Part shown: piece by piece, positions 1,866 to 63,072 of the stretch
How positions within the stretch are numbered: position 1 is the first letter of the stretch
How the letters are laid out: the number at the start of each line of letters is the position of its first letter
Assembly (NCBI GenBank): GCA_964016885.1
Contig: OZ024756.1
Location: forward strand, 17,732,001-17,796,000
DNA: 64,000 bases
DNA from: Eledone cirrhosa
Lineage: Eukaryota
Direction of reading: 5' to 3'
Program-made: the position numbers and the translations under genes
The notes under the pieces: model-generated
What the model saw: the letters and a program-made list of their open reading frames with translations, nothing else
Databases searched by the model: none
Told to the model about the DNA's origin: nothing

Positions 1866-1879
1866 TCAATGTTTCTTCA
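1866..1879 (-). CDS. Candidate terminal coding exon (VKKH-stop)
   Basis: Strong tract tttctgtttctatttttccag, phase-1 read TG AAG AAA CAT TGA TGA, AATAAA about 43 nt after the stop. Confidence 0.55.

Positions 1880-63072: not shown

Follow-up and report, generated by a model that had tools for sequence, protein, structure and literature searches.

An octopod orthologue of the egg-tether protein octovafibrin with a predicted multi-module, His/Arg/Gly-rich tail

A total of thirty five phase-1 exons were located by a six-frame scan and motif searches on the minus strand of the window, the 64,000-nucleotide stretch of Eledone cirrhosa DNA analysed here. When joined they read through 2,397 codons without a stop, in agreement with the initial annotation, which had described about 35 phase-1 exons in one frame and whose two ends, 63,072 and 1,866, fall exactly on the first base of an EGF exon and on the end of the stop codon. 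The thirty five exons consist of the last EGF exon, two lectin exons, thirty modules, a 42-nt mini-exon and a 14-nt terminal exon (Table 1). They represent the 3' half of the gene, which runs for about 79 kb past the right edge of the window (positions above 64,000 carry the window numbering on along the contig, C17), and the protein of about 2,400 aa envisaged earlier is thus too short by the length of the outlying part, with about 3,580 aa now predicted. The whole gene model contains 66 exons that encode 3,581 aa (~409 kDa) in the order of a likely signal peptide, a lectin domain, 29 EGF units, a second lectin domain and 30 modules of an eight-cysteine type with His/Arg/Gly blocks.

In the 66-exon model all 65 acceptors are AG, all 65 donors are GT and all 64 internal exons are divisible by three, although these statistics are partly given by construction as the exon boundaries were picked for phase 1. 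Of 63 model exons, 53 pass a splice-site matrix that was trained on them; as a control the matrix was run over the opposite strand of this 141 kb, where it found no comparable pairs of exons. The locus was found to be single-copy in the 3.0 Gb assembly by genome searches in which copy counts are lower bounds; of the 90 matches to module 4, 24 lie at the locus itself whereas the other 66 are distant, with at most 51% identity.

Table 1. Positions of the predicted exons and domains in window numbering, continued along the contig beyond 64,000.
Feature	Position	Strand	Remarks
Candidate signal-peptide exon	143,085-143,015, ATG 143,072	-	In phase, with an acceptor of its own; sequence unique; by inspection only
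Lectin-like domain 1	138,832-138,656; 135,058-134,849	-	Profile E 7.5e-8, residues 22-129 of model without signal exon
EGF exons 1-28	128,761 to 65,171	-	111 nt each; right of window
Intron reaching beyond window	63073..64000	-	Right edge; rest of gene to its right
EGF exon 29	62962..63072	-	Pfam EGF 33.9 bits, over cut-off; octovafibrin peptide 10/16
C-type-lectin-like domain 2	60846..62269 (62,269-62,078; 61,061-60,846)	-	Profile E 1e-12; octovafibrin peptides
Module 1	58442..58588	-	8 Cys, MEGF/laminin-EGF-like; last part under octovafibrin peptides; ends Lys-Lys-Ala
Modules 2-23	31639..52092	-	Young tandem array; 17 eight-Cys and 5 seven-Cys copies; exons 144-219 nt
Broken module copy	35044..35178	-	3'-truncated, without donor; outside model
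Broken module copy	32167..32304	-	3'-truncated, one Cys lost; outside model
His/Gly/Arg mini-exon	28588..28629	-	42 nt, phase 1-1; splice sites 8.5 bits (acceptor) and 11.5 bits (donor); sequence unique
Module 24	23673..25304	-	543-aa exon: two His blocks, then 8-Cys module
Module 24 His-Arg-Pro-Ala hexapeptide block	25,302-24,529	-	258 aa
Module 24 His-Gly-Arg block	24,528-23,812	-	239 aa, nine extra Cys
Module 25	21339..21725	-	82-aa His/Gly block (41 His, 26 Gly) and 8-Cys module
Modules 26-30	9628..20139 (20,139-19,981; 17,620-17,459; 15,088-14,927; 13,562-13,404; 9,747-9,628)	-	
Terminal exon, most likely	1866..1879	-	14 nt: four residues and stop; AATAAA 42 nt after stop

All 29 EGF exons found in 464 kb are on the minus strand and lie between the two lectin domains. 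Each encodes a 37-residue unit with the cysteine spacing 5-6-9-2-9 (29/29), and three units (EGF 5, EGF 15 and EGF 17) carry an extra seventh cysteine. The seventh cysteine of EGF 17 also occurs in a peptide of Octopus bimaculoides and is a candidate for a conserved intermolecular cross-link. The mature core, taken together with module 1, has a predicted mass of 154 kDa and a pI of 6.3.

C-type lectins that bind sugars in a Ca-dependent manner typically carry an EPN or QPD motif together with a WND motif. These motifs are absent from both lectin domains, as judged from the translations and the alignment. With a half-domain exon as query the Pfam Lectin_C score is 18.9 bits against a cut-off of 22.6, and the E values in Table 1 come from one-sequence searches with a profile compiled from 85 such domains in proteins that the searches had returned. 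Both domains are likely to adopt a lectin fold; that either of them binds sugar appears doubtful.

An upstream search for a signal-peptide exon, suggested in the initial annotation, produced one in-phase candidate, which was picked by inspection from 40 candidates with a methionine and a hydrophobic stretch among 475 donors. This search was bounded by two blocks of Ig-like exon repeats on the plus strand (L024:7183-9026 and L029:5737-7567, about 48 kb apart), recognised by eye and without a Pfam match. Two other upstream candidates were rejected, namely a hydrophobic exon at 292,280, which lies past a plus-strand gene cluster and 153 kb from lectin 1, and a mucin exon made from a 62-bp repeat just before lectin 1, in which every copy shifts the frame.

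The arrangement of the core is that of octovafibrin, the protein of the egg case and tether fibres of O. bimaculoides (XP_014771937.1), reported to consist of a signal peptide, a lectin domain, 29 EGF units and a second lectin domain with a mass of ~135 kDa (PMC10336842); the bioRxiv account 10.1101/2025.09.16.676614 gives the same 29-EGF description. The N-terminal lectin, the 29-EGF array, the second lectin and the peptide orthology were all found here, with identical cysteine spacing and peptide-level identities that are mostly 55-94%. Twenty two published octovafibrin peptides (PMC10336842) were compared by eye with the exon translations. Ten of them match window exons, with identities of 19/22, 15/16, 10/13, 7/8, 16/23, 22/39, 10/16, 6/11, 6/13 and 4/8. 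Three of the ten (15/16, 16/23 and 22/39) belong to lectin 2 and three to module 1, the 19/22 match running across the junction between lectin and module 1 and the other two being 7/8 and 6/11. Peptides cross three predicted junctions: the one from EGF 29 into the lectin, the one between the two lectin exons and the one from the lectin into module 1. Seven peptides match upstream EGF units (11/13, 10/13, 10/14, 9/10, 6/7, 12/22 and 7/10) and fall, in order, on EGF 7-8, 17, 18, 22, 23 and 24, with one peptide spanning EGF 7 to 8 and showing the correct Phe at the split codon, whereas five short EGF-type peptides could be placed only loosely. Lectin 1, modules 2-30 and the His blocks are without a match among the twenty two peptides.

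Given the 29 EGF units between two lectins and the peptide matches, the orthology is firm and, on this sequence comparison, the locus is almost certainly the orthologue of octovafibrin. The initial annotation had taken the protein for an unrecognised, lineage-specific one and had named an already described orthologue as evidence against itself; such an orthologue exists for the N-terminal 1,400 aa, which correspond to the described egg-tether protein, and not for the tail of some 2,170 aa beyond module 1; this tail is new, and we found no description of it in the literature covered on octovafibrin (subscription journals lay outside this coverage). Here the frame goes on for 2,224 aa past the second lectin, so that the published C-terminal end is not seen and the locus is classed as a variant of octovafibrin rather than as the described protein. 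The published peptides already enter module 1 although the text of PMC10336842 ends the protein in the lectin domain, and the published end is therefore inexact even in O. bimaculoides. Since the core is octovafibrin, the expression site is most likely the egg case and not the beak or immune cells. Of the tissues and roles proposed earlier, egg material is thus the one favoured by the orthology, whereas beak, sucker cuticle and immune effector have lost most of their weight.

Modules 2-30 comprise 2,174 aa with a mass of 254 kDa and a pI of 9.4. No stop codons or frameshifts were found in the 29 tail module exons, and all eight cysteines are kept in 23 of the 29 modules, with the exception of five modules with seven and of module 30 with six. 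The module type resembles that of MEGF10/Draper/SREC-like mollusc proteins, the best matches being named MEGF-, draper-, Tie- and PTP-like with 34-59% identity over parts of the modules; most of these are membrane proteins, whereas no membrane segment was found here. A predicted model tested for an EGF/laminin-EGF-like fold (pLDDT 79.6, pTM 0.54) gave weak matches, the best in Foldseek being netrin LE domains (E 0.036, with none reaching 0.001) and the best in a structural comparison having Z 3.2 and rmsd 4.7 over 57 aligned residues, and a search of the ESM Atlas returned no usable match.

The His/Arg/Gly blocks amount to about 580 residues in total. The 497 residues ahead of the Cys module in module 24 contain 156 His, 129 Arg, 64 Gly, 39 Pro and 9 Cys. 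The acceptor of this exon at 25,304 is the only strong in-frame one (9.7 bits against 1.1 bits for the next best) and module 25 has one in-frame acceptor only; with single credible in-frame acceptors, the His blocks are placed inside the exons of modules 24 and 25. Modules 24-30 have a pI of 11, with 24% His and 3% acidic residues. Gly-His-Gly repeats occur 30 times in module 24 and 10 times in module 25, a likeness to the squid histidine-rich beak proteins (PMC11931252, PMC9068888). The squid proteins are, however, reported to be small (HBP-1, 15 kDa) and hydrophobic with a pI of ~6 and the coacervation motif GHGxY (PMC11931252, PMC9068888), whereas the His blocks here contain no copy of GHGxY and form an Arg-rich segment of pI 11 embedded in a disulfide protein. 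Identity with a squid beak protein was rejected on the motif, the size and the pI, and according to PMC9068888 O. bimaculoides yielded no His-rich beak proteins of the squid type.

The reading we prefer, with a probability of about one half, is that of an octovafibrin orthologue whose tail of ~2,170 residues is an inbuilt arm that makes the egg envelope cohere or cross-links it. In the orthologue a single polypeptide carries the EGF units, the lectin and module 1; here the splice anatomy suggests that modules 2-30 are spliced onto module 1, which would give a secreted precursor, or a long isoform, of 409 kDa. Octovafibrin is reported to make up at least 80% of the organic matter of the threads, with one major thread band of ~135 kDa whose composition matched that of whole threads; its EGF rod is described as a load-bearing, disulfide-locked fibre and lectin-driven end-to-end assembly has been proposed (PMC10336842). 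By extension from the orthologue, the core most likely acts as an EGF rod locked by disulfides, from which the egg case and tether are assembled. Modules 2-23 would form a second rod that holds the basic, His-rich modules 24-30 far from the mildly acidic core. On release into seawater the histidines may deprotonate and bind Zn or Cu, the arginines may form salt bridges with acidic molecules, for example the oviducal gland's sulfonated mucopolysaccharide, and fourteen spare cysteines (five from the 7-Cys modules and nine in the His block) may form intermolecular disulfides. Octopus eggs are reported to be coated with sulfonated mucopolysaccharide (PMC8976471). The cross-links would lock the fibres to one another or to the cement. 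A cut at the Lys-Lys after module 1 may clip the tail, which would explain why the band has 135 kDa and yields no peptides beyond module 1. Against this role, the His blocks lack GHGxY, and EGTA left the mechanics of O. bimaculoides threads unchanged, a result that is mainly a test of Ca (PMC10336842).

A combination of an EGF-repeat scaffold with a His-rich linker is found in marine holdfasts, where the tandem-EGF protein mfp2 and the His-rich mfp4 of mussels and sbp9 of scallops are examples; mfp4 joins the EGF-rich plaque to the thread and its His domain gels through Zn bonds (PMC12817120). The mussel mfp2 and mfp4 are separate proteins whereas one polypeptide is predicted here, and the likeness is one of analogy only. 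If the tail is in the same transcript as the core, we consider this cohesive role reasonably probable. A stronger version, which we put forward tentatively and would not expect to hold in full, regards octovafibrin as a 400 kDa fibre-and-glue precursor of octopods and a single-gene counterpart of mfp2 plus mfp4, in which the 135 kDa protein would be the clipped N-terminal third and the C-terminal two thirds, with Arg/His/Cys blocks that would bind metal, would be an egg-case hardener or the cement of the egg string.

A defensive role is an unlikely alternative, in which the tail would be made together with the core and its cationic, Cys/His-rich parts, clipped or exposed on the egg case, would bind and inhibit bacteria during the months of brooding. 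The pI of the tail (9.4) and of modules 24-30 (11) and the Lys-Lys at the end of module 1 are consistent with this role, and the nearly neutral change of modules 2-23 may be a sign of diversification. The egg-case proteins of cuttlefish are also reported to be Cys-rich and bacteriostatic (PMC4500399). These Sepia proteins (SepECP) are secreted cephalopod egg-case proteins as is proposed here, but they have three Cys-rich domains and are products of the nidamental gland (PMC4500399). Regular convertase sites are lacking in the tail and only six of the 30 module junctions are dibasic (none of the 29 EGF junctions is), which argues against a polyprotein of small peptides, and the matches to defensins reach 15.6-15.9 bits, far under the cut-off of 30.7. 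A polyprotein of small defensin-like peptides was rejected on these dibasic counts and on the junction codon, which after splicing is Gln and not the Arg-Arg of a genomic read-through.

We regard as distinctly unlikely a scheme in which modules 2-30 belong to a gene of their own downstream, or never become joined to the core by splicing, and octovafibrin ends in an unrecognised terminal exon after module 1. The peptides do end at module 1 and the size of the thread band (~135 kDa) fits the core alone; the predicted masses are 154 kDa for the mature core with module 1 included and 409 kDa for the complete model. Taken together, the absence of tail peptides among the twenty two and the 135 kDa band indicate that the tail is absent, removed or minor in the threads of O. 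bimaculoides. Also in favour of this scheme, module 1 is followed by a long intron of 6.3 kb with many AATAAA signals. The module 1 donor scores a normal 8.6 bits, and module 2 opens with a strong phase-1 acceptor of 13.5 bits. The intron between them holds nine acceptors of at least 5 bits, two of them above 8 bits (about four would be expected from the EGF introns), but both of the latter lie in repeats with 112 and 7 matches in 464 kb. A scan of the intron with a simple matrix, which may miss a weak exon, revealed no convincing signal or first exon for the tail. Because of the normal donor, the strong acceptor and a tail without a start of its own, modules 2-30 probably share a transcript with the core. 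The lectin and the array belong to one polypeptide, as the initial annotation had it, to the extent that a sequenced peptide of the orthologue crosses from the lectin into module 1.

Protein searches returned no orthologue with the tail. A lectin exon query restricted to 126-2,000 aa gave no match among 39 candidates, and a further search gave 72 matches of which none contained EGF, the inspected ones being generic lectins or unrelated repeat proteins (17 of the 72 were Pfam-scanned). A module query gave 22 matches among 455 candidates, with none named as cephalopod, and a module 24 query restricted to 952-2,715 aa gave no match among seven candidates. Octovafibrin itself was not returned despite the long exact stretches that its peptides share with the lectin exon query, so these blanks are uninformative on an absence of the tail.

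Modules 3-22 are the product of recent duplications that copied exon and intron together as blocks, with 88-98.5% DNA identity and block periods of 3.1, 5.0 and 8.1 kb at 96-98.5% identity. It is very unlikely that the tail is mostly the tolerated ballast of such runaway exon duplication, with the module 3-21 array being in part an assembly duplication, although the near-identical blocks and the two broken copies are what this would predict. Modules 2-23 contain 13 distinct cores, and pN/pS over all 78 pairs of these is near 0.9 (0.73 within the main type), the pairs being non-independent; at the sequence level the constraint on modules 2-23 is weak. The old modules 24-29, however, keep eight cysteines and have pairwise pN of 0.18-0.33 against pS of 0.23-0.93, with pN about half of pS, which suggests purifying selection. 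In the 8.1-kb duplication the exons differ at 8 of 960 sites (0.8%) without a gap, whereas the introns differ at 71 of 4,236 sites (1.7%) with 82 gap columns. The copies differ by 1.5-4%, including microsatellite lengths, which speaks against an assembly artefact; an assembly duplication could in any case alter the copy number but could not remove the His blocks. The two broken copies show decay where it occurs, which makes the intact frames of the 29 modules informative. Owing to the intact frames, the conserved cysteines, the gap-free exon duplicates and the purifying selection in the old modules, the tail looks coding.

At the C-terminal end, the 14-nt exon at 1,879-1,866 is most likely the predicted 3' end of the gene. 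Its acceptor (11.4 bits) is the strongest of the 28 phase-1 acceptors of at least 6 bits before the next gene, and its sequence is unique. The next gene, about 12 kb to the left of the window, encodes a Yip1-domain membrane protein, which we take to be YIPF5-like, and its coding region is a single exon (L012:6899-7741, minus strand). This neighbour would be a useful synteny marker for locating the tail in other octopods. The gene model contains no transmembrane segment (signal exon left out), the top 19-residue hydropathy being 1.06, and none of the 142 acceptors of at least 2 bits before the next gene opens a credible transmembrane stretch. A membrane receptor of the SREC/MEGF10/Draper type with a missed transmembrane exon is hardly credible even though the modules resemble mollusc MEGF-like receptors, phosphatases and kinases and the Yip1-domain coding exon has an acceptor in frame with the octovafibrin-type gene, as only eight of the 142 acceptors lead into hydrophobic sequence, the eight score a weak 3.2-6.1 bits and six of them give translated simple repeats, and the orthologue is a fibre protein secreted in bulk. 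Receptor identity was rejected since neither the single transmembrane segment nor the cytoplasmic tail was found. The earlier claims of a frame without a transmembrane exon and of a large disulfide-rich scaffold, probably secreted and without a membrane anchor, are borne out.

Octovafibrin serves as a model for toughness that arises from the disulfides of tandem EGF units, on the assumption of a lectin-29 EGF-lectin protein with assembly through terminal lectins. In this genome module 1 opens a predicted 254 kDa tail, which challenges the published picture. Expression of the tail would mean either that the type protein is a processed fragment or that octopod lineages tune their tethers by means of a His/Arg cross-linking arm. 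The cohesive arm that we favour would then supply a His/Gly-rich structural sequence for octopods, among which squid-type beak HBPs have reportedly not been found (PMC9068888), and a new candidate for a metal-responsive bioadhesive sequence.

Several further features were observed at this locus and elsewhere in the genome. In the array at 33,279-49,927 an upstream acceptor (186-nt exon) competes with an inner acceptor (147 nt), and in some copies an extra T puts the upstream acceptor out of frame so that only the inner one works; for modules 12 and 16 both acceptors appear to give an open frame. Large arrays of MEGF-type module exons occur on C2 (311-315 Mb) and C10 (25.9-27.3 Mb), some of them with a regular 22-kb spacing, and these are a possible source family of the tail modules. 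Module 1 has twenty dispersed matches of equal score and 47% identity on C16, C20, C22, C23 and C27, which suggests an EGF-like exon inside a large repeated segment. A trinucleotide repeat on the minus strand at 8,597-9,559 provides a poly-His frame 96 nt past the donor of module 30, with an acceptor at 9,531. This frame of 311 codons is a possible alternative His-rich C-terminus and is in phase, but it was not adopted in the model as its acceptor scores 3.9 bits and the repeat is open in all three frames. Finally, four long and homogeneous minisatellites were found in introns, at 9,914-12,247 (53 bp unit), 63,156-63,858 (52 bp unit), 16,125-16,749 (107 bp unit) and 61,085-61,628 (47 bp unit).
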